IMG/VR virus record: IMGVR_UViG_3300035495_000018
Location: 24,104-88,103 of that record
DNA: 64,000 nt
DNA from: a virus
Lineage: Duplodnaviria; Heunggongvirae; Uroviricota; Caudoviricetes; Crassvirales
Strand: one strand, 5' to 3'
The position numbers and the translations under genes were made by a program. The notes below the pieces were generated by a model. It was not told the DNA's origin, searched no databases, and worked only from the letters and a program-made list of their open reading frames with translations. The stretch's first letter is position 1. Each line of letters opens with the position of its first letter. This document shows positions 23,789-63,121 of the stretch, one piece after another.

Positions 23789-24721
23789 TTAGTTCCAAGG
23801 AGAAGAACTTTCAGATGTGCTGAAAGGAAGTTCATCAGTAGGAGCTGCCTCTGTGGTAGGAGTAAATGTAGTTGCTTCTACAGAATACTCATGTACAGGA
23901 GCTGCTGAATACTCAGTATTAAGAGTCCTACCATTAGCTGCTGCATTTTGAATCATCTCTTGAAGCTCTTTATCAAGAGTGCTATAGTTATTAGCTGAGT
24001 TTCGCAAGAATTTCCTTGTATATACAGCTTGATAAAGTCTTCCAGTTTCTGCATCAGTTCTTACACCAAGCATAATTTTAACCTTATTAGTAGGTTGGAA
24101 GCCAAGTGCATCTTTAATCTCAGAGAAGTCTCCTTTGAAGATTTTGTCAAGGCTATCAAACCTACATTCACATTCCTCAGGTTTAACTTTAGTATTGGGG
24201 ACCATTTTCTTAAGATTGGCATCCCATGTAGTTACACTAGGAATACAAAGATAAGCCTTTACAAACTCCATGAGTTCTTCTTCTCCTACATAAGCAGGCC
24301 TATAGTCCTTATCAATGTCAGCAGGACCATTAGAATAAACAGGAATAGCTTTAGCTGCAAGCTCTTCAGCTGTAGCCCATGCAGTCCTACCATACTTATC
24401 AATTACTTGAGTTTTACCTGATGTAGCACCTACTCTAGGCCTATTTTGCAAGAACAAAGCCATAGTTACAAGAGGCATTTCAAAGCCTACTTTCTCTGTG
24501 TCAGGTTGGAATACAATTTGAATTCTTGCATTACCATACTCATTACCATCACTATCTGTTACTTTACCAAGATAATTAGGAGCTTCATCCAATGTAGTAT
24601 TAAACAAAGACTCATGTTCTGCTTTATCAGGATTTACTGCTTTAATAAATACAGGAGCTACACCTACATATCTTTTAAACTCCTGAGCTTCTTTTGATTC
24701 TGAACCTTTAGCAATTGCCAT
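23789..24721 (-). CDS. Putative ssDNA-binding protein
   Basis: 310 aa, acidic C-terminal tail ending DELPF like the SSB DDDIPF tail; position in replication module. Confidence 0.35.
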   Translation of the reverse strand: MAIAKGSESKEAQEFKRYVGVAPVFIKAVNPDKAEHESLFNTTLDEAPNYLGKVTDSDGNEYGNARIQIVFQPDTEKVGFEMPLVTMALFLQNRPRVGATSGKTQVIDKYGRTAWATAEELAAKAIPVYSNGPADIDKDYRPAYVGEEELMEFVKAYLCIPSVTTWDANLKKMVPNTKVKPEECECRFDSLDKIFKGDFSEIKDALGFQPTNKVKIMLGVRTDAETGRLYQAVYTRKFLRNSANNYSTLDKELQEMIQNAAANGRTLNTEYSAAPVHEYSVEATTFTPTTEAAPTDELPFSTSESSSPWN

Positions 24722-30609: not shown

Positions 30610-30828
30610 TCATTTAGAAATATCCCTAAATAGTGTTGGAACCTGACCATAGACAGGTAACTTGCCATCCCACTTCTCAATCCACATTTTCTCTAGGATT
30701 TGAGGAGTAAGGGCTTGCTGTTTAAGCCTATTGGCTTCTGCTTCTGCTTGTGCTGCAACAATAAGTTTCTTTGCATTAGCTTCTGCAACAGCTACCTCAT
30801 TCTGAGCTTGCTGAGCTCTTTGTATCAT
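30610..30828 (-). CDS. SPFH/band-7 protein, 3' exon (C-terminal coiled-coil part)
   Basis: AQQAQNEVAVAEANAKKLIVAAQAEAEANR resembles HflK/C-type C-terminal region; in-line with the 198-aa SPFH N-terminal ORF. Confidence 0.45.
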   Translation of the reverse strand: MIQRAQQAQNEVAVAEANAKKLIVAAQAEAEANRLKQQALTPQILEKMWIEKWDGKLPVYGQVPTLFRDISK

Positions 30829-30834
30829 TTATCT

Positions 30835-31790
30835 TCACATAACCACGCAACTAGTTATGCAGTTCTCTTATGAACTTCTATACATTACTGCATAGATGAG
30901 ACTATATCTTCACCCTCAACATTACTTGGTAGGGGTTTCCCATTTCCACCTGCATTAGCTTCAGATGTACTCTCTTTCGAGATAGTCGTTGAACCTTTAC
31001 TAATACTAAAGTTATATATTCTCTCTACTTGCTTTAAGAAATCTTCCTTTTGTTGAGTATGTTTCATATAATTACATATAGGACAGCAAGGAACACAATT
31101 ATCCACTTGATAACCTATATTAGGATTTATCCTATCTATGCCATTATACCTTATTGTAGGCTGATGAGTGTCTCCTCTTTTAACGAGAAGCTCCTTACTT
31201 GCTTCTCTAGGCTCTGCTCCACAATAATGGCATGGTTGTGATATTATATGATTAAACTCTTCAAATGTTAAATTAAAACTATGCTTCCTTGAAGCAGCAT
31301 TAGCTTTACTCGACCTATAAAGAAAATTTCTCAATCCATATTGAGATTCGTTACTGAATTTAGTTTGAACTCTACTACCTAGTTTATGCAGGTAAGCTCC
31401 TCCATAGAGAAACTCCTTACCAGTGTTCACATTTCTGCATTTCCACTTGGTTACATAACATTTTTCAGTAGGTATTCTTACCTCTTCAATAACTTCATAC
31501 ACTCCATAGACCTGTCCTACATGGACAGGATATTTAAGTGCATTCTTTTTAATACTTCTGTAATTAGTACTTGGCTGCTGATTTTCCATAAATAATTCAT
31601 TTTGATAATACAAAGATAAGCAAAATCTTTGAATTATGCAAATGAATAAATATGGATGTTCCAGCAATTAAGGAAATTTATTATCTTGCCTTTTCAAGCA
31701 AGGAGACCGTACATTTCAGCCTCATTCTTAGCATTGACAGCCTTTACAATAGTCTCTGGATATTTAAGACCTGAAGTAAGCTGTTCAAGT
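30835..31790 (-). mobile_element. Group I intron carrying an HNH homing endonuclease, splitting the SPFH gene (boundaries approximate)
   Basis: S-like element AAGATATAGTCT (plus 30898-30909) and R-like CCAGAGACTAT (plus ~31747-31757) bracket the HNH ORF, consistent with an ORF in the P8 loop. Confidence 0.5.
30885..31667 (-). CDS. HNH homing endonuclease
   Basis: CHYCG...NGIDRINPNIGYQVDNCVPCCPICN (HNH with Zn-binding Cys pairs). Confidence 0.75.
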   Translation of the reverse strand: MLEHPYLFICIIQRFCLSLYYQNELFMENQQPSTNYRSIKKNALKYPVHVGQVYGVYEVIEEVRIPTEKCYVTKWKCRNVNTGKEFLYGGAYLHKLGSRVQTKFSNESQYGLRNFLYRSSKANAASRKHSFNLTFEEFNHIISQPCHYCGAEPREASKELLVKRGDTHQPTIRYNGIDRINPNIGYQVDNCVPCCPICNYMKHTQQKEDFLKQVERIYNFSISKGSTTISKESTSEANAGGNGKPLPSNVEGEDIVSSMQ

Positions 31791-32290
31791 TGGAAGTTTT
31801 CCCTCAGCAATGCAGCAGACAAGTACCTCTCAATGGCATTCTCAATAGAATCCCTATTACTTACAATGTAGTCTGTAGTGAAATTGTTGAGCTGAATTCT
31901 GAAAGCATCCTTTACATAGTTATAGAGTGTTCCATTAATGACCTCACTAAGCTCTTTCCTGTATTTCTTGAATACAATAGGAGACTTACCATCTACAATC
32001 TTCAATGAGATAGTTGGGTCAACAGTAAACTCTGAACCATCCTTTGCATTGATAGTAAAGGGTTCATAGTCTACAGTCTGTACAAATGTAGGATACTCAT
32101 ACACAGATTGTGTAAAAGGATTGTACCATACTGCACCTGTACACATAGAAATGTCACCTACTCCCTTGTCATCACCATAAAGGTTTACAAGGATACCTTC
32201 ATGTCCCGCATCTATTCTTTCATAGCCACAAGAGGACATCATAAACACAGCCATAAAGGCCATGAGAAAACCTAGAATCTTTGTCTTCAT
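31694..32290 (-). CDS. SPFH/band-7 (prohibitin-like) lipoprotein, 5' exon
   Basis: Signal peptide plus lipobox MSSCG; ERIDAGHEGILV SPFH N-terminal motif. Confidence 0.5.
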   Translation of the reverse strand: MKTKILGFLMAFMAVFMMSSCGYERIDAGHEGILVNLYGDDKGVGDISMCTGAVWYNPFTQSVYEYPTFVQTVDYEPFTINAKDGSEFTVDPTISLKIVDGKSPIVFKKYRKELSEVINGTLYNYVKDAFRIQLNNFTTDYIVSNRDSIENAIERYLSAALLRENFQLEQLTSGLKYPETIVKAVNAKNEAEMYGLLA

Positions 32291-32935: not shown

Positions 32936-33349
32936 TTAGTCACCAAGGACCTCAAAGCTGTATGAAACAGCACCAAGGTCATGTGCTATAAGGTCTAGAT
33001 GACTCTTCAACCTTTCATTTTCTGAGAGTGTATCCCAAATTCTCTCAACCACATCTCCATAAGCATTTACTTTGGTGGGTTTTGCGAGTTTAGGACTGGT
33101 AGGAGTTGAGAGCATGTGGTGGTATGCCTCATCACAGAGATTGATGTTTTGAGACACCAATTTCTGCTTTCTCAGCTTGACAATCAGAGGCTTCTTTACA
33201 ACCTTCTGATATTTGCCTTTGCCTTTGGTGTAGCTAAGGAGCATCTTATGCTCACTATAGCATTCTTTTGGGTTTTGTTCGCACACCTGCGAGCTTAGCA
33301 TACCTGCGCCTGGCACAAGTAAGCTAAGACTAATCTTTGGTTCTACCAT
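32936..33349 (-). CDS. hypothetical protein
   Basis: 137-aa ORF. Confidence 0.4.
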   Translation of the reverse strand: MVEPKISLSLLVPGAGMLSSQVCEQNPKECYSEHKMLLSYTKGKGKYQKVVKKPLIVKLRKQKLVSQNINLCDEAYHHMLSTPTSPKLAKPTKVNAYGDVVERIWDTLSENERLKSHLDLIAHDLGAVSYSFEVLGD

Positions 33350-33365
33350 AATTTAAAATTGGTTG

Positions 33366-33479
33366 TGGGGGAGGTAGGAATCGAACCTACGTTAAAATAA
33401 AAACCACAAATTTTACCAGATAATTTTTTAGATTTGTAAGTATCCAAAGATACTCTAAAACCAACATTCTAACTCCCCC
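33366..33479 (-). ncRNA. Overlong (114 nt) tRNA-like RNA with canonical 7-bp acceptor (GGGGGAG/CTCCCCC) and T-arm (GTAGG TTCGATT CCTAC) but ~40-nt internal insertion; Y-RNA-like or intron-containing tRNA
   Basis: Acceptor and T-arm read directly from sequence; no canonical anticodon arm at expected position; internal ACTTACAAA motif. Confidence 0.45.
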
Positions 33480-33494
33480 ATAGATAGTCACTAA

Positions 33495-33568
33495 ATTCAC
33501 ATGATGGACTCGAACCATCTACTCTAAGCACCAAAAAACTTATGCTCTACCTAATGAGCTAATGTTAT
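33495..33568 (-). tRNA. Atypical tRNA: canonical D-arm (TA GCTC ATTAGGTA GAGC) and T-arm, but 8-10-nt anticodon loop (TTTTTTGGTG) and 5/7 acceptor pairs
   Basis: Manual fold. Confidence 0.4.
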
Positions 33569-33604
33569 TAGTATTGTAAGTGACTGTATATAACAAATGG
33601 CATG

Positions 33605-33724
33605 CGGGGATTATTGGATTTGAACCAATAACTCTGGATTGTATCCCAGAATAAATTGTTAAGTTGCTTTTGTAAGTGACCTTAGCCACTCAAACAATCT
33701 GCCTTTCCATAAGGCTGAATCCCC
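33605..33724 (-). ncRNA. Overlong (120 nt) tRNA-like RNA: perfect acceptor GGGGATT/AATCCCC, D-arm GCCT-TATGGAA-AGGC, T-arm ATTGG TTCAAAT CCAAT, ~47-nt insertion containing hairpin TCTGG(gatacaa)CCAGA and ACTTACAAA motif
   Basis: Manual fold. Confidence 0.45.
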
Positions 33725-33743
33725 TTGATTTAGACACTTGAAT

Positions 33744-33816
33744 TTTCCAATAGTGGGGTCGAACCACTGCCATTAAAATTACAAATTTTACACTCTAACC
33801 TCTGAGTTAATCGGAT
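33744..33816 (-). tRNA. tRNA-Thr (anticodon TGT)
   Basis: Canonical cloverleaf: D-stem ACTC/GAGT, anticodon stem TAAAA/TTTTA, loop TTTGTAA, T-arm AGTGG TTCGACC CCACT; A1-A72 mismatch. Confidence 0.7.
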
Positions 33817-33958
33817 AATTAGTATTGTAAGTGTCTATAGTGAATGTAGGAGGTATTTCTCCTCCTACACCCTGTATGATACTTGGTTTACGAATTTATA
33901 GTCTATGATTTACGAAGTATGTATGAGTATAAATTGTAAGTATCATTAGTATTATGTA

Positions 33959-35776
33959 TTAAAGCACATTGGCTCTTACTACATCATACCTGTTGCTTCT
34001 GTACAAAGACTGCAATGGAGTATAGGCATCATAGATGTCCATATCCTTGAAGTTTGTGAGAAACTGTTCAATCTGAGCAGGGTTAGAAGGTATGTACATA
34101 AAGTTGTCAATACCACTAAATCTATCAGCTCTTGCAGTACTGAAGTACCTTCCAGCTACATCAATAGCTACAATGAAGGGCTTGAATCCAAAGTATGTCT
34201 CGCACTTTCTCATGAAGTCATTTAATGATGCTTCAGGGCTAGAAAGGTTGTTCCATTCACCATCACTGATGATAGTCCAAACAGGATAAGCCTTTAATGC
34301 ATCAAGAACCTCTGGATTCTCTTTGCAAGCTTGCCTCAATCCTTCAGGGATAGCACTAATATTAGTACCACCACCATTGAATACAGCATTGCAGAAAGAC
34401 TTGATGTTGAGGTAGTTCTCATAGAAACTAGCTTTAGGATTGACAAAAGGAGTTGCCTTTGTTTTAGCAACTTGCTTTCTCATCATCCAGTTAGGAGTCT
34501 CATTTGCTTTCCTATCAATATAGCCATACCAATGAGAGCTATAATCAAAGAATCCAAGGAGATTTCTACCATCATCATCAGGGTTCTTAACAAGACATAC
34601 TGATGCAAGGAAAGTAGCAAAGTTGAAGGGCTCACCAGACATTGAGCCAGAGTCATCTATAATGACAAGGCTGTTGTAAGGAAGGTTCACTTTATTGATG
34701 AAAGACTCAAGTTTGAGCTTATCAACTCTATTATTGAGAATATCATCATAAATGTCATTGAAGCTTGTTGCTCCAACTGTGACCTTAGCCTCTTTCTTAA
34801 CTTTGTTGAGCTTGACTACATCCTCTTCAGTAGCCTGCCCCTGCCTTACTTTCTCTTCAAGAACTCTCTGCTCTTCTTGCTTCTTCTCCTTGTACATCTC
34901 CCACTCAAGATACCAATCTTGGAACTTAGGATATTTAGGGTCATCAGTATCCTTTACCTTAGAGTAGAGGATTCTGTTCTTAACCCTAAACCTAGCTTGT
35001 GCAGGAAGCTGGTCAAACCACTTAATGAACTCATCTTTACTGAATTCCTTGATTTTACCAGTTGAGAAGAGCACTGATTCAAGAGTTCCATTGTACTGCT
35101 TTCTCCATTCTCTATAACCAATAAAATTGGCAATAGTAGGAGTTACAGTGTATTTCCAACCCATTTGTTCTGACAGAGTAATGAGTAATTTAGCCTTATC
35201 TTCCATGACCTTCTTGGTCTCAGGAAGCATCTTCTTGTGACCACTTCTCTTAGATAATCTAGGAAGAGTCAAGAATTTAGCTACGAGCAGCTTGTCAAAA
35301 GGATTAGTGCCGTTGATTACCTTATAAAGGTATTCAACAATAGCTGCTCTATACCCAGCTACTGCAAGAACATTATGAGTTCTCACAACTCTAGTTCTCT
35401 TAGTCTGGATTCTATTTCTGAGGAGTAAGTCGAAACAACTATACTCATTGAACAGACCAGCATTAAGGAACTTGATGAACTGTTCTTTGTGCTTATTCCG
35501 CATCCAGTCCAGTACAGTAATAAACCCCTCTCTATTGGCATTGCCACCAGAGTCTCGCTTATTACCCTTGAAGATATTGTGCTGTCTAGCTGTAATATCA
35601 CCAATTGAGAACAACAGTGAGAAGAACATCTCTCTCTGTTCTTTGGTTTTACATTCAGCATAACCACCATCAAGCATATCATTGGTGATATTACCACCAA
35701 CATTCTGCATGATTTTAAGACAGTCTTTCATCCCATAAAAGGGATTTTCGTTACTTTTGTTAAGTTTTACTTCCAT
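33959..35776 (-). CDS. Ro60/Rsr-like protein candidate (N-terminal ~370 aa + C-terminal vWA domain with MIDAS)
   Basis: MIDAS DxSxS (VIIDDSGSMSG) at residues ~374-380, the same position as in Ro60; 605 aa; adjacent to atypical tRNA-like RNAs. The TROVE part is inferred from architecture only. Confidence 0.4.
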   Translation of the reverse strand: MEVKLNKSNENPFYGMKDCLKIMQNVGGNITNDMLDGGYAECKTKEQREMFFSLLFSIGDITARQHNIFKGNKRDSGGNANREGFITVLDWMRNKHKEQFIKFLNAGLFNEYSCFDLLLRNRIQTKRTRVVRTHNVLAVAGYRAAIVEYLYKVINGTNPFDKLLVAKFLTLPRLSKRSGHKKMLPETKKVMEDKAKLLITLSEQMGWKYTVTPTIANFIGYREWRKQYNGTLESVLFSTGKIKEFSKDEFIKWFDQLPAQARFRVKNRILYSKVKDTDDPKYPKFQDWYLEWEMYKEKKQEEQRVLEEKVRQGQATEEDVVKLNKVKKEAKVTVGATSFNDIYDDILNNRVDKLKLESFINKVNLPYNSLVIIDDSGSMSGEPFNFATFLASVCLVKNPDDDGRNLLGFFDYSSHWYGYIDRKANETPNWMMRKQVAKTKATPFVNPKASFYENYLNIKSFCNAVFNGGGTNISAIPEGLRQACKENPEVLDALKAYPVWTIISDGEWNNLSSPEASLNDFMRKCETYFGFKPFIVAIDVAGRYFSTARADRFSGIDNFMYIPSNPAQIEQFLTNFKDMDIYDAYTPLQSLYRSNRYDVVRANVL

Positions 35777-35870
35777 TTCAAGTAGATGTTTTTAATGAGT
35801 TTGTAAGTAACAAAGATGAGGATATTCTTTCATGTTTGAACTATTCTGTCTTCCTCATTTTACCTTCTAA

Positions 35871-36308
35871 CTAAATGTTAGGGTTGTCAAGAGCAGCAAG
35901 CTCTTCTTCAGCCTCTTTAAGCCTGTCTTCAGGAGTCTTTGCTTCCTCCTTCATCTTGGCTATTTTGTCCTCCAATTCATGTCTCTTGGTTCTAATTTCA
36001 GCAAGCTCTTGCTTGAATCTCTTATAACCAATGACAAGATTGACAGTCTCTTTAGCAGTTTTGAGCTTATTAAGCTGAATCTGAGAAGCATCTGTAGCTA
36101 CCCATTCATCAGCATTCTCAAGACTCTCAATTTGCTTTGCAAGTGAGAGTCTAATGCTATTAAGACTATTGACTGTAGTTGTGTGGAGTAAATCCACAAC
36201 ATTCAGAGGCTGTCCTAACTTAGAGTTAACAGTCTCATTGTTCAGGAGCATTCCCATCAGAAGGGTTTGCATCCTTTGAAAGTGGTCTTGCGTGAAGTTG
36301 ATTTTCAT
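35871..36308 (-). CDS. Coiled-coil hypothetical protein
   Basis: 145-aa ORF. Confidence 0.45.
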   Translation of the reverse strand: MKINFTQDHFQRMQTLLMGMLLNNETVNSKLGQPLNVVDLLHTTTVNSLNSIRLSLAKQIESLENADEWVATDASQIQLNKLKTAKETVNLVIGYKRFKQELAEIRTKRHELEDKIAKMKEEAKTPEDRLKEAEEELAALDNPNI

Positions 36309-37593: not shown

Positions 37594-37665
37594 TGGTTGA
37601 TGGGAGACTCGAACTCCCAACCTGAAAATTAGGAATTTCCTGCTCTGTCCATTGAGCTAATCAAC
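37594..37665 (-). tRNA. tRNA-Arg (anticodon CCT)
   Basis: Acceptor GGTTGAT/ATCAACC, D GCTC-AATGGACA-GAGC, anticodon loop TTCCTAA, T-arm GGGAG TTCGAGT CTCCC. Confidence 0.75.
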
Positions 37666-38154
37666 CTTTGCTTTACCATAGTAAGTACTTTTTCCTCTTG
37701 GAGCATTCTTGTTCCTTGAACCAAAGTTCTCAGTTAATGAATGACAATTAGGACACAGTAGTTGTAAGTTATTCTCTATATTATTCTCAGAGTTTCCATC
37801 TATATGATGTACTTGAAGTGGTGTTTTATTTGTATATGGGTTTATTTCTCCCCATCCACAAATTTGACACTTGCCATTATATTTTTCCATTAGATAATTT
37901 CTTACAAAAGTACTACAAGAATAGCCTTTTGTGCCTGAAATTTCACCTAACTTCCATTTTCTAATGGTCTCTTTCCTTTTGTAAGAGAACTCACACTCTT
38001 TGTTACAAAACTTTCCATTACTAGAATATCTGGGATGGAAAGACTTGCCACAATTTTCACATACTACTGTCCCATTTCTAAATTCTTTGTTGGCTTTCAT
38101 ACGATTTATTTTTAATCGTACAAAGTTACAAAGAATATTTGAAATATACAACAA
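37657..38154 (-). CDS. HNH endonuclease
   Basis: VHHIDGN...NLQLLCPNCH plus N-terminal CxxC pairs. Confidence 0.7.
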   Translation of the reverse strand: MLYISNILCNFVRLKINRMKANKEFRNGTVVCENCGKSFHPRYSSNGKFCNKECEFSYKRKETIRKWKLGEISGTKGYSCSTFVRNYLMEKYNGKCQICGWGEINPYTNKTPLQVHHIDGNSENNIENNLQLLCPNCHSLTENFGSRNKNAPRGKSTYYGKAKVD

Positions 38155-42736: not shown

Positions 42737-42808
42737 TGCTGCTTGGTGTAAAGGCTAACACACCAGTTTTTGGCACTGGGTTTAGAAGTTCGAGTCTTCT
42801 AGCAGCAA
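42737..42808 (+). tRNA. tRNA-Gln (TTG)
   Basis: Manual cloverleaf: acceptor TGCTGCT/AGCAGCA, anticodon loop TTTTGGC, T-arm AGAAG TTCGAGT CTTCT. Confidence 0.7.
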
Positions 42809-42816
42809 CACTGAAT

Positions 42817-42888
42817 GCCTCCTTAGTATAAGGGATAATGCAATAGTCTTCTAAACTATCAATCTAGGTTCGAGTCCTAGAGGAGGTA
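42817..42888 (+). tRNA. tRNA-Arg (TCT)
   Basis: Anticodon stem ATAGT/ACTAT, loop CTTCTAA, T-arm CTAGG TTCGAGT CCTAG. Confidence 0.7.
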
Positions 42889-42974
42889 CTTGCGGAGATG
42901 CGTTTTGTTTTTGTTTGTTGTTTAAAGTGATTGAAAGGAACCCACCCAACCTGTGAAGGTGCAAGTGGGTAAAT

Positions 42975-43047
42975 GGAGCCATCATCTAACAGGTTAGGAT
43001 GCCACTCTTTCAAGGTGGTAATCTGGGTTCAATCCCCAGTGGCTCTA
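42975..43047 (+). tRNA. tRNA-Glu (TTC)
   Basis: Anticodon stem CCACT/GGTGG, loop CTTTCAA, T-arm CTGGG TTCAATC CCCAG. Confidence 0.7.
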
Positions 43048-43056
43048 CTAGATATT

Positions 43057-43127
43057 GGGTGTGTGGTGTAATGGTTAGCATACAACACTGTCACTGTTGA
43101 GGTTGGGGTTCAAGTCCCCCACATCCA
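43057..43127 (+). tRNA. tRNA-Asp (GTC); T-stem appears to be 4 bp
   Basis: Anticodon stem CAACA/TGTTG, loop CTGTCAC, T-loop TTCAAGT. Confidence 0.6.
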
Positions 43128-43132
43128 GCTAT

Positions 43133-43219
43133 GGAAGTTTGGCAGAGTGGCTTAATGCACTGGTCTTGAAAACCAGCAGCCTGTAACAGGGTTCATGGGT
43201 TCAAATCCCATAGCTTCCT
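43133..43219 (+). tRNA. tRNA-Ser (TGA), type II
   Basis: Anticodon stem CTGGT/ACCAG, loop CTTGAAA, long variable arm, T-arm ATGGG TTCAAAT CCCAT. Confidence 0.7.
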
Positions 43220-43224
43220 CAAAT

Positions 43225-43307
43225 GGAGGGTAAAGCAGTGAGGTACTGCATCTGCCTGCTAAGCATGATGTACCTTAGGGTATTTGGTTCGAGTCTAATG
43301 CCCTCCT
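43225..43307 (+). tRNA. tRNA-Ser (GCT), type II (fold less certain)
   Basis: Acceptor GGAGGGT/GCCCTCC, loop CTGCTAA, variable arm TACC-ttag-GGTA. Confidence 0.5.
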
Positions 43308-43317
43308 CAATATATTT

Positions 43318-43390
43318 AGGGAAGTGGTCTAGTGGTTATGATGCATGCTTTGGGAGCATGAGGTCGAGAGTTCGAGTCTCTCTTTCCCTA
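43318..43390 (+). tRNA. tRNA-Pro (TGG)
   Basis: Anticodon stem CATGC/GCATG, loop TTTGGGA, T-arm GAGAG TTCGAGT CTCTC. Confidence 0.7.
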
Positions 43391-43396
43391 CTATAT

Positions 43397-43469
43397 GGGC
43401 TTTTAGTTAAGATGGCTATAACAATAGATTTGCACTCTATAGTCCTGGGTTCGAGTCCCAGTTAGTCCA
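43397..43469 (+). tRNA. tRNA-Ala (TGC); U-U mismatches at acceptor 6-67 and 7-66
   Basis: D GTTA/TAAC, anticodon stem ATAGA/TCTAT, loop TTTGCAC, T-arm CTGGG TTCGAGT CCCAG. Confidence 0.6.
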
Positions 43470-43477
43470 CTAAATAT

Positions 43478-43551
43478 TCCTTCTTAGCTCAGTTGGTTAG
43501 AGCAGTTGACTGTTAATCAAAAGGTCGTAGGTTCAAGTCCTACAGGGGGAG
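43478..43551 (+). tRNA. tRNA-Asn (GTT)
   Basis: D GCTC-AGTTGGTTA-GAGC, loop CTGTTAA, T-arm GTAGG TTCAAGT CCTAC. Confidence 0.7.
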
Positions 43552-43683
43552 CATAATAAAGAGAATAGTACTAGTGTAAGACTCAACGTAACTTAGTGGC
43601 TTTACATTGTATGTAAGTCTAGCCCACTTGAGTGTCGTATAACTCACCTTAGCTACAGAGGATGGTCAATGGTAGCATTATTC

Positions 43684-43754
43684 ATTGGTGTGGTATAATG
43701 GTATTACTCAGGTCTCCAAAACCTGCAATGGGAGTTCGATTCTCTCCACCTTTG
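43684..43754 (+). tRNA. tRNA-Trp (CCA); two U-U acceptor mismatches
   Basis: Anticodon stem CAGGT/ACCTG, loop CTCCAAA, T-arm GGGAG TTCGATT CTCTC. Confidence 0.55.
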
Positions 43755-43760
43755 CTTATT

Positions 43761-43834
43761 GGGCAGTTAACTCAGTTGGTTAGAGTACATGACTGATATT
43801 CATGAGGTCCTAAGTTCGAGCCTTAGATTGCCCA
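43761..43834 (+). tRNA. tRNA-Ile (GAT)
   Basis: Acceptor GGGCAGT/ATTGCCC, anticodon stem CATGA/TCATG, loop CTGATAT, T-arm CTAAG TTCGAGC CTTAG. Confidence 0.75.
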
Positions 43835-43836
43835 CT

Positions 43837-43906
43837 GTGTTAGTAGCTTATAGGTAAAGTGCTTGACTGTGAATCAAGAGAAGAGGGTTCGAGTCCCCCT
43901 AACACC
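43837..43906 (+). tRNA. tRNA-His (GTG)
   Basis: Acceptor GTGTTAG/CTAACAC, D GCTT/AAGT, anticodon stem CTTGA/TCAAG, loop CTGTGAA. Confidence 0.65.
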
Positions 43907-43914
43907 CTATATAT

Positions 43915-43988
43915 TGCTGAGTAGCTTAGACAGTAGAAGCACCTGCCTTATAAGCAGGAGATAGTGGGAGCATTACCCATCTCAGCTA
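43915..43988 (+). tRNA. tRNA-like gene with anticodon TAT (Ile-AUA-type) and non-canonical T-arm GTGGG AGCATTA CCCAT
   Basis: Canonical acceptor/D/anticodon geometry (D GCTT/AAGC, anticodon stem CCTGC/GCAGG, loop CTTATAA) but T-loop lacks TTC. Confidence 0.5.
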
Positions 43989-44248
43989 CTACTCTATGAT
44001 AATACAATTTCTAAATTATATTATTATGAAAAGAGCATGTAAATTACTGAAGAAGGCAGCTAAATGGTACTTTAAACAGATGGAAAGTGCATACTTCTGT
44101 CCTTCGGGAATGATTCCTATGAATTACATAGGATAATTCCCACCCTTCTTTTTGTGATAGTATATAATGTAGAAACATAAGATATAAGAGGATGCTGGTA
44201 GCCACTTCCTAGGAGGAACCTCTATAAAAACAGCTGTAGGCTACACAA

Positions 44249-44321
44249 CTTCCTATAGCTCAATTGGCAGAGCTTCTGACTCTTAATCAGAGGGTTCAGG
44301 GTTCAAGTCCCTGTGGGAAGA
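44249..44321 (+). tRNA. tRNA-Lys (CTT)
   Basis: Acceptor CTTCCTA/TGGGAAG, loop CTCTTAA, T-arm CAGGG TTCAAGT CCCTG. Confidence 0.7.
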
Positions 44322-44328
44322 CTATTAT

Positions 44329-44400
44329 TCTCCTATAGCTGAATGGTAAAGCTGCACTCTTTTAAAGTGAGGATTCTAGGTTCGAGTCCTAGTGGGAGAA
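44329..44400 (+). tRNA. tRNA-Lys (TTT)
   Basis: Loop CTTTTAA, T-arm CTAGG TTCGAGT CCTAG. Confidence 0.65.
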
Positions 44401-44409
44401 CTATTATAT

Positions 44410-44491
44410 GGGAATACTTTAATGCGGAGAATTAGTGCAGTCTGTAAAACTGTTGCCTCTGGCTAAATTGGTTCGACTCCATTTATTCCCA
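44410..44491 (+). tRNA. tRNA-Tyr (GTA), type II
   Basis: Perfect acceptor GGGAATA/TATTCCC, anticodon stem GCAGT/ACTGT, loop CTGTAAA, long variable arm. Confidence 0.65.
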
Positions 44492-44499
44492 CATTGATT

Positions 44500-44573
44500 G
44501 GAGACATAGCAAAGATGGTCTATGCGGAGGACTGAAAATCCTAAGATGTGAGGTTCGATACCCACTGTCTCCA
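44500..44573 (+). tRNA. tRNA-Phe (GAA); T-stem has a bulged A
   Basis: Perfect acceptor GGAGACA/TGTCTCC, loop CTGAAAA. Confidence 0.6.
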
Positions 44574-44577
44574 CTAT

Positions 44578-44665
44578 GCCCAAGTGGTGGAATAGGTAGA
44601 CACAATAGCCTTAGAAGCTATGTCGAAGTAATAGTAGAGTGTGGGTTCGAGTCCCACCTTGGGTA
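44578..44665 (+). tRNA. tRNA-Leu (TAG), type II
   Basis: Anticodon stem ATAGC/GCTAT, loop CTTAGAA, long variable arm, T-arm GTGGG TTCGAGT CCCAC. Confidence 0.7.
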
Positions 44666-44667
44666 CT

Positions 44668-45009
44668 ATGGAAAAGAAGTTTATATTCTATTTCAATGGG
44701 ATGATAGTCAAAGCTTCTATATCAGAATACAATACTAATATAGAAGATTCTTATAGATTCAAGAACATATCCAGTATGAGGGATATTCTGAGAGTGATAA
44801 GAGCTGAATCCCTAAATGATTCTACTGAGAGAGCAATAAGCAAAAGGTCTCTATTCAGTATGGTTAATGAATGGAGGGTACATAATTTATTGTATGCCCT
44901 TGGCATTAAGAGAGATAGGGTTAAAAGTGTTGATTTAAATATAGGTCAACCTTGGTATATTAAGGCAGTGTACACCCTTCTATCACCATTTTATTTGCAC
45001 TTTGTGTGA
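44668..45009 (+). CDS. hypothetical protein (start moved downstream of tRNA-Leu)
   Basis: ORF-track start 44641 lies inside the tRNA; in-frame ATG at 44668 (MEKKF...). Confidence 0.4.
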   Translation: MEKKFIFYFNGMIVKASISEYNTNIEDSYRFKNISSMRDILRVIRAESLNDSTERAISKRSLFSMVNEWRVHNLLYALGIKRDRVKSVDLNIGQPWYIKAVYTLLSPFYLHFV

Positions 45010-45026
45010 AAATACTTATCAATTTA

Positions 45027-45058
45027 TTTGGTAGTATGAAATATTTTACTTAACTTTG
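45027..45058 (+). promoter_or_regulatory. Bacteroidota-type promoter (-33 TTTG 45027-45030; -7 TAacTTTG 45051-45058)
   Basis: Consensus spacing, 22 nt upstream of 45080 ATG. Confidence 0.45.
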
Positions 45059-45079
45059 TAGCATCAAAAGAAAACAAGT

Positions 45080-45277
45080 ATGGCGAAGAATTTATCAAGC
45101 ATGGAGAAGAAGTGGCAGGCTGAAGAGGATGCTAGGACAATGGCTAGATACCAAGAGATAATGTCCGACTCTAAAAGAAAATCAGCAGCCATTAAGCAAG
45201 CCAGAACAGAAGCTTCAGCATTAGAGAAGAGGGCTAATGCAATGAAACTAGCTGCTGGTGGAAAGCTAAAGAAATAA
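45080..45277 (+). CDS. Small hypothetical protein (K/A-rich)
   Basis: 65-aa ORF behind promoter. Confidence 0.45.
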   Translation: MAKNLSSMEKKWQAEEDARTMARYQEIMSDSKRKSAAIKQARTEASALEKRANAMKLAAGGKLKK

Positions 45278-45285
45278 TAAGTGAT

Positions 45286-45358
45286 GCTTCCTTAGTTCAA
45301 TTGGCAGAGCAACTGTTTTGTAATCAGTCTGTTGTAAGTTCGAGTCTTACAGGAAGCT
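45286..45358 (+). tRNA. tRNA-Thr (TGT)
   Basis: Perfect acceptor GCTTCCT/AGGAAGC, loop TTTGTAA, T-arm GTAAG TTCGAGT CTTAC. Confidence 0.75.
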
Positions 45359-45363
45359 CTAAT

Positions 45364-45435
45364 GCAGGATTAGTATAAAGGTTATTATGCCAGTATTCCA
45401 AACTGGATATGAGGGTCCAATTCCCTCATCCTGCT
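45364..45435 (+). tRNA. tRNA-Gly (TCC)
   Basis: Perfect acceptor GCAGGAT/ATCCTGC, anticodon stem CCAGT/ACTGG, loop ATTCCAA, T-arm GAGGG TCCAATT CCCTC. Confidence 0.7.
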
Positions 45436-45441
45436 CAATTA

Positions 45442-61891: not shown

Positions 61892-63121
61892 ATGAAGACT
61901 TATAGTAACTTGTTTGACAAAATATGCACGATTGAAAACTTCCAAGCTGCATATCAGAATGCTATAAAAGGCAAGATGCACTATAGGGAAGTAATAGAGA
62001 TAGAAAAGAACAGAGATGCCTACTTGGAGGCTCTACTGGAAGAAGTAAAGTCCAAGAAATATAAGGTCTCAGAGTATACAGTGTTCAACCTCTTCACAGG
62101 TCATAAGATGAGAGAAATCTTTAAGCTACCTATGAGAGATAGAATAGTACAACATGCTATTATGATATACTGTGAGCCAATATTCAGAGAGACATTCATT
62201 CTAGATACCTATGCTTCTATTAAGACTAGAGGTATTCACTTAGGGTTACAAAGAGTGAAGAAAGCTCTAAAGAAGTACCACTACAAGTACTGCTTGAAAC
62301 TGGATATACACAAGTGCTATCCTTCACTAGATAAGGAAATATTAAAGAAGAAACTAGCAAGGAAGTTTACAGACCCTGACTTACTAGACCTGCTATTCAA
62401 GATAGTAGATAGTTGTGAGAAGGGTGTTCCTATTGGAAACTATACATCTCAATATTTCAACAACTTCTACTTCAGTGATTTTGACCACTGGATAAAAGAG
62501 GTTAAGGGTATTAAAGCCTACTTCAGATATTGTGATGATATGGTTATACTGAGCAATAGTAAAGAAGAGCTTCATGCTATGCTAGAAGAAATAATGGGAA
62601 AGATGAAAGAACTCAATGTTTCACTCAAAGAGAACTATCAGCTGTTTCCTATTGATTCTAGAGGTATAAGCTTCCTTGGTTATATAATTACAGAGGACTG
62701 CATCAAGGTTAGAAAGAACACTAAGAAGAACTTTGTACACAAGGTATCAAAGATGAACTTTTCCAACCCCTCAGCTAAAGACATTAATGTACTTGGTTCA
62801 TATTGGGGTATCTTAGTTCATGCTGATTGTAGACACCTATGGAAATCATACATGGGTTGTAGTGCATTCAAATCCTTCATGAAGAGATACAAGTGTTCAG
62901 CTAGAGATGTTCTTAATAAACCTATCAGGGTGCTAAGGGCTTACAGAAAGTATTCATCTGGTAAATGGTATACTGTTATGGAAGCTCTTGTTGGAAATCT
63001 GTATGCCACAATTAAAACTACAAGTAAGTATTTAGCAGTAGCTCTAAATGCTGTACTTCCATTTGATACATATATTATAGCTACTCAAAGAGGTTATAGA
63101 TTTAATACAATTGTAATATGA
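61892..63121 (+). CDS. DGR reverse transcriptase
   Basis: RT motifs: LKLDIHKCYPSLD (domain 3), YxDD box FRYCDDMVIL; 409 aa; immediately downstream of the TR. Confidence 0.85.
   Translation: MKTYSNLFDKICTIENFQAAYQNAIKGKMHYREVIEIEKNRDAYLEALLEEVKSKKYKVSEYTVFNLFTGHKMREIFKLPMRDRIVQHAIMIYCEPIFRETFILDTYASIKTRGIHLGLQRVKKALKKYHYKYCLKLDIHKCYPSLDKEILKKKLARKFTDPDLLDLLFKIVDSCEKGVPIGNYTSQYFNNFYFSDFDHWIKEVKGIKAYFRYCDDMVILSNSKEELHAMLEEIMGKMKELNVSLKENYQLFPIDSRGISFLGYIITEDCIKVRKNTKKNFVHKVSKMNFSNPSAKDINVLGSYWGILVHADCRHLWKSYMGCSAFKSFMKRYKCSARDVLNKPIRVLRAYRKYSSGKWYTVMEALVGNLYATIKTTSKYLAVALNAVLPFDTYIIATQRGYRFNTIVI

Follow-up and report, generated by a model that had tools for sequence, protein, structure and literature searches.

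Ro60/Y-RNA particles are conserved from bacteria to humans, in whom Ro60 is an autoantigen. In bacteria and actinophages, Ro60 (Rsr) is accompanied by the Y RNAs YrlA and YrlB (Chen et al. 2014, PMC4201824; Rfam RF02553), and phages that encode a Ro60 next to Y-like RNAs have been described (PMC4201824, PMC12135203). Thermus phage phiLo encodes phiRo60 with Yrl1 and Yrl2, and this Ro60–Yrl complex engages the host PNPase (PMC12135203; PDB 9KOP, 9L5Y). We retrieved 357 phage records with the annotation 'Ro-like RNA binding protein', nearly all of them from actinophages. The role of the tRNA-like part of bacterial Y RNAs is still a question. Here we analyze a 64,000-nt stretch of a Crassvirales genome (IMG/VR record IMGVR_UViG_3300035495_000018, positions 24,104–88,103; hereafter the window), in which a 605-residue protein with an architecture that agrees with that of Ro60 is encoded beside a same-strand array of tRNA-like RNAs. 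We consider it probable that this region serves a crAss-like phage as an accessory early-gene cassette for the assembly of a ribonucleoprotein of the Ro60/Y-RNA type.

The protein is encoded on the minus strand by an open reading frame (ORF) that we confirmed at 33959–35776, and is listed here as a candidate divergent Ro60/Rsr analogue on the basis of domain and homologue analyses. It combines an N-terminal α-helical (HEAT/ARM-like) region of ~360 residues with a C-terminal vWA domain carrying a complete MIDAS. The DDSGSMSG motif corresponds to residues 374–381, and the MIDAS residues D374, S376, S378, T471 and D505 are invariant among 55 homologues (22–61% identity). Of these family members, 48 match phrog_850 (best E = 2.2e-16, over residues 72–546), which is annotated 'RNA-binding protein' and corresponds to the phage Ro60 family; human Ro60 matches it over its full length (E = 3.5e-69; the human query sequence was confirmed at 1223.7 bits against PDB 9NEN). 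Comparison of the family with an alignment of seven Ro sequences (human and six phage Ro proteins) using hhalign yielded a probability of 94–95% (E = 1.4e-7 at 94%), with the vWA domain alone aligned. The Pfam vWA_Ro60 model was matched weakly by two family members and the generic VWA_2 model by 15, and four of the six weak MIDAS-region matches returned by a search of PDB sequences were to Ro60. The vWA domain is of the Ro type, and its MIDAS is located where that of Ro60 is, as had been proposed in a preliminary description of this region.

Further searches with phmmer against PDB sequences gave no match, and Foldseek returned nothing significant for the full-length AlphaFold model. Neither the protein nor the region matched any of 50,697 phage records by tblastn or megablast, indicating that this reference collection is devoid of the family. 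Metagenomes hold more than 1,200 relatives, mostly on contigs of ~100 kb, which form 180 clusters at 50% identity. Current labels for the protein are 'hypothetical' or 'cobalamin biosynthesis protein', one cluster being named 'MAG TPA: cobalamin biosynthesis protein [Crassvirales sp.]'.

Four tRNA-like RNAs are located within 600 nt downstream of the ORF, on the same strand. The two overlong ones noticed previously are confirmed at 33605–33724 (RNA A, 120 nt) and 33366–33479 (RNA B, 114 nt), to which we add two tRNA-like genes of ~75 nt (33743–33817 and 33494–33569) that had been passed over. T-arms are present in these RNAs, and D-arms in most of them, in the normal, unpermuted tRNA order. 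Each RNA is associated with a sequence motif that we call the box. Its core, ACTTACAA, is enriched in the window (16 copies, 4.7 expected). A matrix extended from related loci gave the consensus G-N-Y-ACTTACAA-(T)A (extended form, G-N-Y-ACTTACAA-WA). Scanning the 64-kb window with this matrix revealed six strong sites (scores of 18–24), all on the minus strand and all inside the cassette, at positions 33434, 33574, 33670, 33825, 33934 and 35801, the next-best site scoring 10.6. No copy was found at the minus-strand tRNAs at 37594 and 38330 or in the main tRNA array at 42.7–45.4 kb, which shows that the motif does not serve this genome as a general promoter. The three recurrences reported in the preliminary description, at 33574, 33825 and 33937, are all real, the last one being correctly placed at 33934–33941; the copy situated 25 nt upstream of the ORF ATG had been missed.

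Folding predicts that every strong site contributes to a helix. In RNA A and RNA B, a hairpin stands in place of the anticodon loop, and its 3' arm is formed by the 5' part of the motif (GNYACUUA); at the other four sites, this part pairs with a complementary segment downstream. The partner is found either just upstream (hairpin topology) or 40–190 nt downstream (terminal stem or start-codon loop). The resulting box helix comprises 7–10 bp, with one strand ending in G-N-Y-A-C-U-U and followed directly by single-stranded ACAA(UA). It is joined to tRNA-shaped bodies in two topologies, as a terminal stem below the acceptor end, like that of Y RNAs, or as a hairpin with a capping loop where the anticodon loop would be, and is oriented identically in both, with the ACAA end facing the tRNA body and the GNY end distal, at the RNA termini or the capping loop. 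Three different variable triplets with three matching partners in a single window already constitute covariation. Across related loci, exact 7-mer partners of a copy's own type numbered 94, compared with a mean of 15 for swapped types, with a median span of 90 nt; this test replaced an initial partner search allowing G–U pairs, the null rate of which was too high. The string GAUACUUAC(C/A), found at 33434–33443 and in related loci, equals the 5' end of eukaryotic U1 small nuclear RNA, AUACUUACCUG; the likeness of AUACUUAC(C) to that end was set aside as a probable coincidence. Nothing relevant was found in the literature on the motif string, on DUF2828/TROVE or on tRNA introns in Crassvirales.

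RNA A was delineated using the Rfam tRNA model, its predicted fold and an alignment of ten orthologues. Its score with the tRNA model is 35.8 bits (gathering score 29), the anticodon region carrying 47 inserted nucleotides, and it folds with a 7-bp acceptor stem, a discriminator G, a D-arm, a T-arm, a long class II-like variable arm and an anticodon stem lengthened to 7 bp. Its anticodon loop is replaced by the box hairpin UGAGUGGC-UAAG-GUCACUUA and single-stranded CAAAAGCAACUU. Among the orthologues, 95.4% of the alignment cells in the acceptor, box, variable-arm and T helices are paired, compared with 37–59% in slid controls, and ten pairs are changed on both sides, as opposed to 4.1 in shuffles (0 of 500 reaching the observed value). 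The D and anticodon stems are out of register in the MAFFT alignment of the class A RNAs and were excluded from the pair count for this reason.

RNA B, for which we relied on Rfam, ARAGORN, the fold and orthologues present in L002–L019 and elsewhere, has a 7-bp acceptor stem, a T-arm, a weak D region and an extra long arm, and a 5-bp stem bears the box hairpin GAGUAUC-UUUG-GAUACUU instead of an anticodon loop. The textbook acceptor stem, D-arm and T-arm ascribed to both RNAs hold in full for RNA A; in RNA B the acceptor stem and T-arm stand and the D-arm is poor. Both RNAs fold more stably than shuffled sequences (z = −5.0 for RNA A and −3.4 for RNA B). The sole Rfam match of RNA B is a partial and weak one to the transfer-messenger RNA (tmRNA) model (27.5 bits, gathering score 47), which skips ~270 model positions. 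We rejected its assignment as a tmRNA as the score is below threshold and 114 nt leave no space for a tag reading frame. An ARAGORN 'tmRNA' call in L027, which is identical to the window, was likewise dismissed, as it was reproduced neither by the default scan nor by Rfam. Separately, a tmRNA scoring 51.5 bits (gathering score 47) occurs in the related crAss-like contig L029 (2686–3198, plus strand), ~0.8–1.3 kb upstream of the Ro-like gene.

In the other units, the box forms a terminal stem. The box-flanked tRNA (33731–33837), supported by tRNA scans, the fold and partner statistics, consists of a tRNA-Thr(UGU) at 33743–33817 enclosed by the stem UAGACACUU (33829–33837, motif 33825–33832)/AAGUGUCUA (33731–33739). 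It is redundant for decoding, since the main array (42737–45436, plus strand), which comprises 17 (ARAGORN) to 19 (Rfam) ordinary tRNAs, includes a second tRNA-Thr(UGU). The box-flanked tRNA-like RNA (33486–33585), supported by tRNA scans, the fold and 33 homologous units, contains a cloverleaf (33494–33569), in which the acceptor stem has only 4 bp and the anticodon loop 8 nt, enclosed by AGUCACU (33579–33585, motif 33574–33581) and AGUGACU (33486–33492). Its layout is Y-RNA-like, with a terminal stem, an internal loop and a tRNA-like domain. Thirty-three such units, from related loci L001–L044 and the window (33494–33569), share an identical D-arm (UAGCUCAUUUGGUAGAGCA), an acceptor stem of ~4 bp and the box as terminal stem, and their anticodon loops correspond to Lys, Thr, Met/Ile, Pro, Asn, Glu, Ser or Ile, or are 8 nt long. 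One tRNA-like scaffold carries a freely varying anticodon loop.

Two box helices enclose other material. Directly 3' of the ORF stop codon (33876–33946), AUGAUACUU (33938–33946, motif 33934–33941) pairs with AAGUAUCAU (33876–33884) in a 9-bp closing stem, supported by the fold and the own-type partner statistics, around a payload of ~53 nt that is not tRNA-like. In the mRNA leader (35747–35814), UUUGUUACUU (35805–35814), which overlaps the motif ACUUACAA (35801–35808), pairs with AAGUAACGAA (35747–35756, codons 7–10) as a 10-bp stem in the minimum-free-energy fold, and the loop of this helix contains the ORF start codon (35774–35776). A G+C-rich stem-loop, GUAGGAGG-AGAAAUA-CCUCCUAC (33846–33868), read by eye from the sequence, sits between two box units and is not followed by a U-run; a role in termination or stabilisation is possible. 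Related loci such as L005 have an equivalent hairpin immediately adjoining the motif.

The array accompanies the gene across related phages. We assembled 44 viral contigs encoding a homologue (46–100% identity), and same-strand motif arrays are present in all of them. Over these loci (407 kb), ACTTACAA occurs 272 times on the strand of the gene compared with 15 times on the other. The loci also contain 60 overlong tRNA-like genes (105–157 nt), all on the gene's strand; taking these with RNA A and RNA B, 59 of 62 harbor the motif with at most one mismatch. The box occupies the anticodon position of at least four types of tRNA body, among them class II-like and tRNA-Glu-like ones, to which the 33 box-flanked units add a fifth family, and each locus has 4–10 RNAs. 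The leader element is conserved as well, as a GTT-type motif precedes the ATG by 4–47 nt (mostly 18–28) in 30 of 43 related loci, 28 of which have the partner (A)AGTAAC downstream, mostly at codons 7–9. The syntenic IAS virus has neither the gene nor an array. Whole-collection scans with ACTTACAATACTAA and with ACTTACAAN{85,112}ACTTACAA yielded mostly chance matches and were used only after re-scoring; among the matches listed for these raw patterns (238 loci), three have at least three strong sites, and it is these three, and no others, that encode the protein. The array is associated exclusively with this gene family. In the replication module of IAS virus (L054, NC_049978; 71717–73186), we also noted genes annotated 'RNA ligase' and 'mRNAse'.

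Homologues of ~25% identity (P0204, P0207, P0271, P0272 and P0273) occur in a different type of phage, with a conserved Peptidase_M23 gene as neighbor, a weak DNA_pol_B match in L293–L295 and a dUTPase in L045 and L295. Here, the box reads CUUAGAAUUAA (L045, L293, L294 and L295) or ACUUAUAAG (L046). Its partners are exact 8-mers 49–128 nt downstream, found for 5/5, 3/5, 4/4 and 1/2 of the CTTAGAA copies in the P0204 clade, and the variable part differs in nearly every copy. Enclosed in the units, on the strand of the gene, are tRNAs or T-arm elements; in the P0204 clade (L045 and L293–L295), the units lie upstream of the gene and not downstream. The same architecture with a different box in a distant clade indicates that the box sequence changes with the protein clade and the architecture is kept. 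Three of these distant units match the Rfam YrlA model over its whole length, with scores of 42.4, 39.6 and 29.1 bits (E = 1.7e-6, 1.1e-5 and 0.013), all below the gathering score of 69, and the L046 box is aligned to the Ro-binding GNCGAA position of the model. Permuted tRNA-like domains were found only beside the distant homologues.

A cultured relative provides a further link to Ro60. Gene product gp96 of PhicrAss001 (L297, MH675552) is annotated 'TROVE domain-containing protein', scores 49.3 bits with Pfam TROVE (cut-off 23) and matches vWA_Ro60. It is expressed within 10 minutes of infection and has been called 'a possible ribonucleoprotein component' (PMC8375218). Its slot is syntenic with that of the window ORF, with the order SPFH gene, small ORFs, RNAs, gene, HNH and tRNA-Arg. 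In the 900-nt unannotated gap after gp96 (record positions 96175–96870, minus strand), we identified two overlong tRNA-like RNAs of ~140–145 nt, one of which scores 46.6 bits with the Rfam tRNA model with an 82-nt insertion, together with four same-strand copies of UUACUUCAA, in the form (A)GNUUACUUCAA. This motif differs from that of the window by one inserted base, and both the RNAs and the motifs are absent from the GenBank annotation. The two proteins occupy the same slot in related Steigviridae genomes, each followed on the same strand by overlong RNAs and a related motif, but gp96 has 472 residues and passes the Pfam TROVE threshold, whereas the window protein has 605 and no TROVE match. 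That no such module had been described in crAss-like phages, as was previously stated, needs qualification: the early TROVE protein of PhicrAss001 is annotated (PMC8375218), and a partner RNA for gp96 is mentioned neither there nor in a Crassvirales review, and none turned up in our searches.

Several observations weigh against a Ro60/Y-RNA assignment. A Pfam search of the window protein found neither a TROVE nor a VWA match, and its own match to phrog_850 is weak (E = 1.5e-3). Using hhalign, nothing aligned outside the vWA domain with a single Ro60 or with the seven-sequence Ro alignment, and only the MIDAS surroundings aligned with gp96 (88.7% probability). Scores of a TROVE N-terminal hidden Markov model (HMM) on the N-terminal 360 residues do not exceed those of reversed sequences, and purpose-built TROVE HMMs (N-terminal and full length) gave signal at the MIDAS strand only. 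On the RNA side, the Rfam Y_RNA and YrlA models, which the preliminary description had put forward as a check, have no match at E ≤ 10 in 33000–36200. The window motif reads GNYACUUACAA where that of YrlA reads GNCGAA(N)G, and the box-flanked units have a terminal stem that bears neither of the Y-RNA-type motifs GNCGAA(N)G and GGUCCGA. A factor other than the 605-residue protein could also recognise the box. The proposed Ro60-like identity is sustained for the vWA half, and the N-terminal half is a HEAT-like solenoid that gave no TROVE-specific signal, making the case for a Ro60 a partial one. The proposed Rsr/Y-RNA module finds support in the conserved linkage of gene and RNAs (44 loci, distant clades, sub-threshold YrlA matches and PhicrAss001), with RNAs that fall outside the Rfam Y_RNA and YrlA families.

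We propose that the 605-residue protein, a helical solenoid with a Ro-type vWA/MIDAS domain, would dock on the box helix, which is shared by all units and is probably its docking site. The tRNA-like bodies would then be an effector or adaptor module comparable to those of YrlA and Yrn1 (PMC4201824) and of phiLo (PMC12135203), and might link the protein to host enzymes that handle tRNA or other RNA, in the way that Y RNAs tether Ro60 to PNPase, or serve as decoys; such host enzymes would be the cellular target of the particle. The sixth box helix, around the protein's own start codon, suggests feedback on translation, that is, autoregulation through the leader helix. A fuller version of this proposal, which we regard as possible but on balance doubtful, is that a Ro60-derived ring protein with modular tRNA-shaped adaptor RNAs, in a widespread crAss-like clade and in unrelated phages with a weak DNA_pol_B match, is directed early in infection against defence nucleases or host enzymes that act on tRNA, as a programmable decoy or tether, and controls its own translation via the same helix.

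In the main rival explanation, the box helices punctuate a specialised cluster of tRNA and tRNA-like genes or direct its processing, being read for cleavage, stabilisation or maturation by a host or phage nuclease or another factor, and the vWA protein is a co-located early protein that binds proteins, as MIDAS domains usually do. The stems bracketing each unit do resemble processing stems, two of the boxes flank something other than a tRNA-like RNA (the ~53-nt payload and an mRNA start), and the N-terminal domain lacks a specific TROVE signal. However, these stems are only 7–10 bp long and strictly conserved in sequence, the motif changes together with the protein clade and arrays occur only where the gene does. 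In addition, a Pfam-confirmed TROVE protein fills the same PhicrAss001 slot beside the same kind of RNAs, and the sub-threshold YrlA matches fall on box units. We consider this explanation unlikely. The diversity of anticodon loops, some of 8 nt, on the one body of the box-flanked family would also suit RNAs that act, independently of the protein, as decoys or substitutes against host anticodon nucleases, and phage tRNAs that evade such nucleases are known. As this leaves the conserved box, its presence on the protein's mRNA and the strict gene linkage unexplained, we find it improbable as a self-sufficient account; a decoy role is compatible with docking of the protein on the box, as a downstream function.

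Two further explanations concern the motif and the overlong RNAs themselves. The motif could act at the DNA level, as a promoter from which a phage or host RNA polymerase transcribes each small gene and the ORF, its presence in the overlong RNAs being incidental: copies lie 4–16 nt upstream of tRNA 5' ends and mostly 18–28 nt before the ATG, co-oriented with the genes, and the cassette is in the early region, with no common early-gene promoter motif detectable in one crAss-like phage examined (10.1101/2020.03.07.982082). A promoter has no need, though, for a co-varying partner 40–190 nt away or an upstream anti-motif arm, and the motif is absent from all other same-strand genes and tRNAs in the 64 kb, so that we deem this quite improbable; a dual promoter and RNA role of the motif is conceivable. 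The alternative raised in the preliminary description, that RNA A and RNA B are intron-containing or aberrant tRNA genes spliced to tRNAs of ~75–90 nt, could draw on the Rfam tRNA model, which accepts RNA A with an anticodon-loop insertion, and on ARAGORN, which calls both RNAs in intron mode. Those calls were discarded as intron evidence because they are inconsistent in anticodon and intron, orthologues of one body being given many amino acids. Moreover, the would-be anticodon positions lie in the arm that pairs and co-varies with the motif, the anticodon stem is lengthened to 7–8 bp with no 7-nt loop, Rfam detects no group I or other intron family in the cassette RNAs, and the same box flanks ordinary-length tRNAs externally. 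We reject this alternative as having next to no likelihood.

The source of the window is a crAss-like phage of ~100 kb, the large terminase of which is 82% identical to that of IAS virus (Steigviridae). The replication module (DNA polymerase, NrdD, rIIA-like and helicase genes) is on the minus strand and the structural module (terminase and portal genes) on the plus strand, the cassette being located near the start of the former. Beyond the RNAs, an SPFH/prohibitin gene is split (30610–32290, minus strand): its N-terminal part (31694–32290) matches Pfam Band_7, and ORF 30610–30828 shares 72% identity with residues 175–243 of the intact IAS virus prohibitin. The ~860 bp between the two parts contain a 260-residue ORF (30885–31667) with Cys-rich HNH-like motifs by eye and no Pfam match. 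The insert looks like an intron or mobile insertion, and no Rfam intron model matched it. On the other side, at 37594–38154 (minus strand), an HNH endonuclease ORF (37657–38154) ends inside or beside tRNA-Arg(CCU) (37594–37666), a pairing that is also found in PhicrAss001. Beside the tail genes, a 409-residue ORF (61892–63121, plus strand) matches a PHROG reverse-transcriptase family (E = 1.3e-103) and may be part of a diversity-generating retroelement.

Phage Ro60 proteins with Y-like RNAs, and a TROVE protein in PhicrAss001, are already known. What appears to be new, judging by the publications that we searched, is the very divergent 605-residue family, the box helix with its placement in two topologies on unpermuted bodies, the arrays of multiple copies, the box in the leader and the very presence of partner RNAs in crAss-like phages. 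The phages that carry the cassette are among the most abundant viruses of the human gut, and annotation pipelines will miscall its RNAs as odd, pseudo- or intron-containing tRNAs with arbitrary anticodons. For the question of what the tRNA-like part of bacterial Y RNAs does, the cassette offers a natural series of variants, with the same probable docking helix on different tRNA bodies in two topologies and a motif that changes with the protein. The question is directly testable, since PhicrAss001 has been cultured on Bacteroides intestinalis and transcript-profiled, gp96 is early and the neighboring RNAs are unannotated.

Compared with the bacterial and actinophage Ro60 systems, the window protein likewise has a helical N-terminal part followed by a vWA/MIDAS at about residue 370, and its partner RNAs lie within 4 kb on the same strand, often with tRNA genes near, but it is devoid of a detectable TROVE sequence signal. 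As in YrlA and YrlB, a stem with a conserved motif on one strand, here the probable docking stem, is combined with a tRNA-like domain with T- and mostly D-arms. Unlike in YrlA, this domain is unpermuted and has a true acceptor stem with free ends; the box can replace the anticodon loop, as the internal helix of RNA A and RNA B; and unlike YrlA/YrlB loci, with one or two RNAs, each locus has several, and the box is also found on an mRNA leader. The phiRo60 of phiLo differs in its recognisable TROVE domain and in RNAs that bear CGAA in a stem-bulge-stem, lie upstream of the gene and are not described as full cloverleaves. The tmRNAs and intron-containing tRNAs share with the window RNAs an acceptor stem and T-arm separated by a large insertion, in line with the weak tmRNA match of RNA B, whereas the window RNAs lack the tag reading frame, the pseudoknots and the G3:U70 pair of tmRNA. 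Yrn1 of Deinococcus radiodurans (PMC4201824) resembles the box-flanked units in the order of its D-like, anticodon-like and T-arms and in having the (here putative) docking stem at the acceptor end, and differs from them in having a metazoan-type Ro-binding helix, no full D-arm and no known paralogues with variable anticodon loops.

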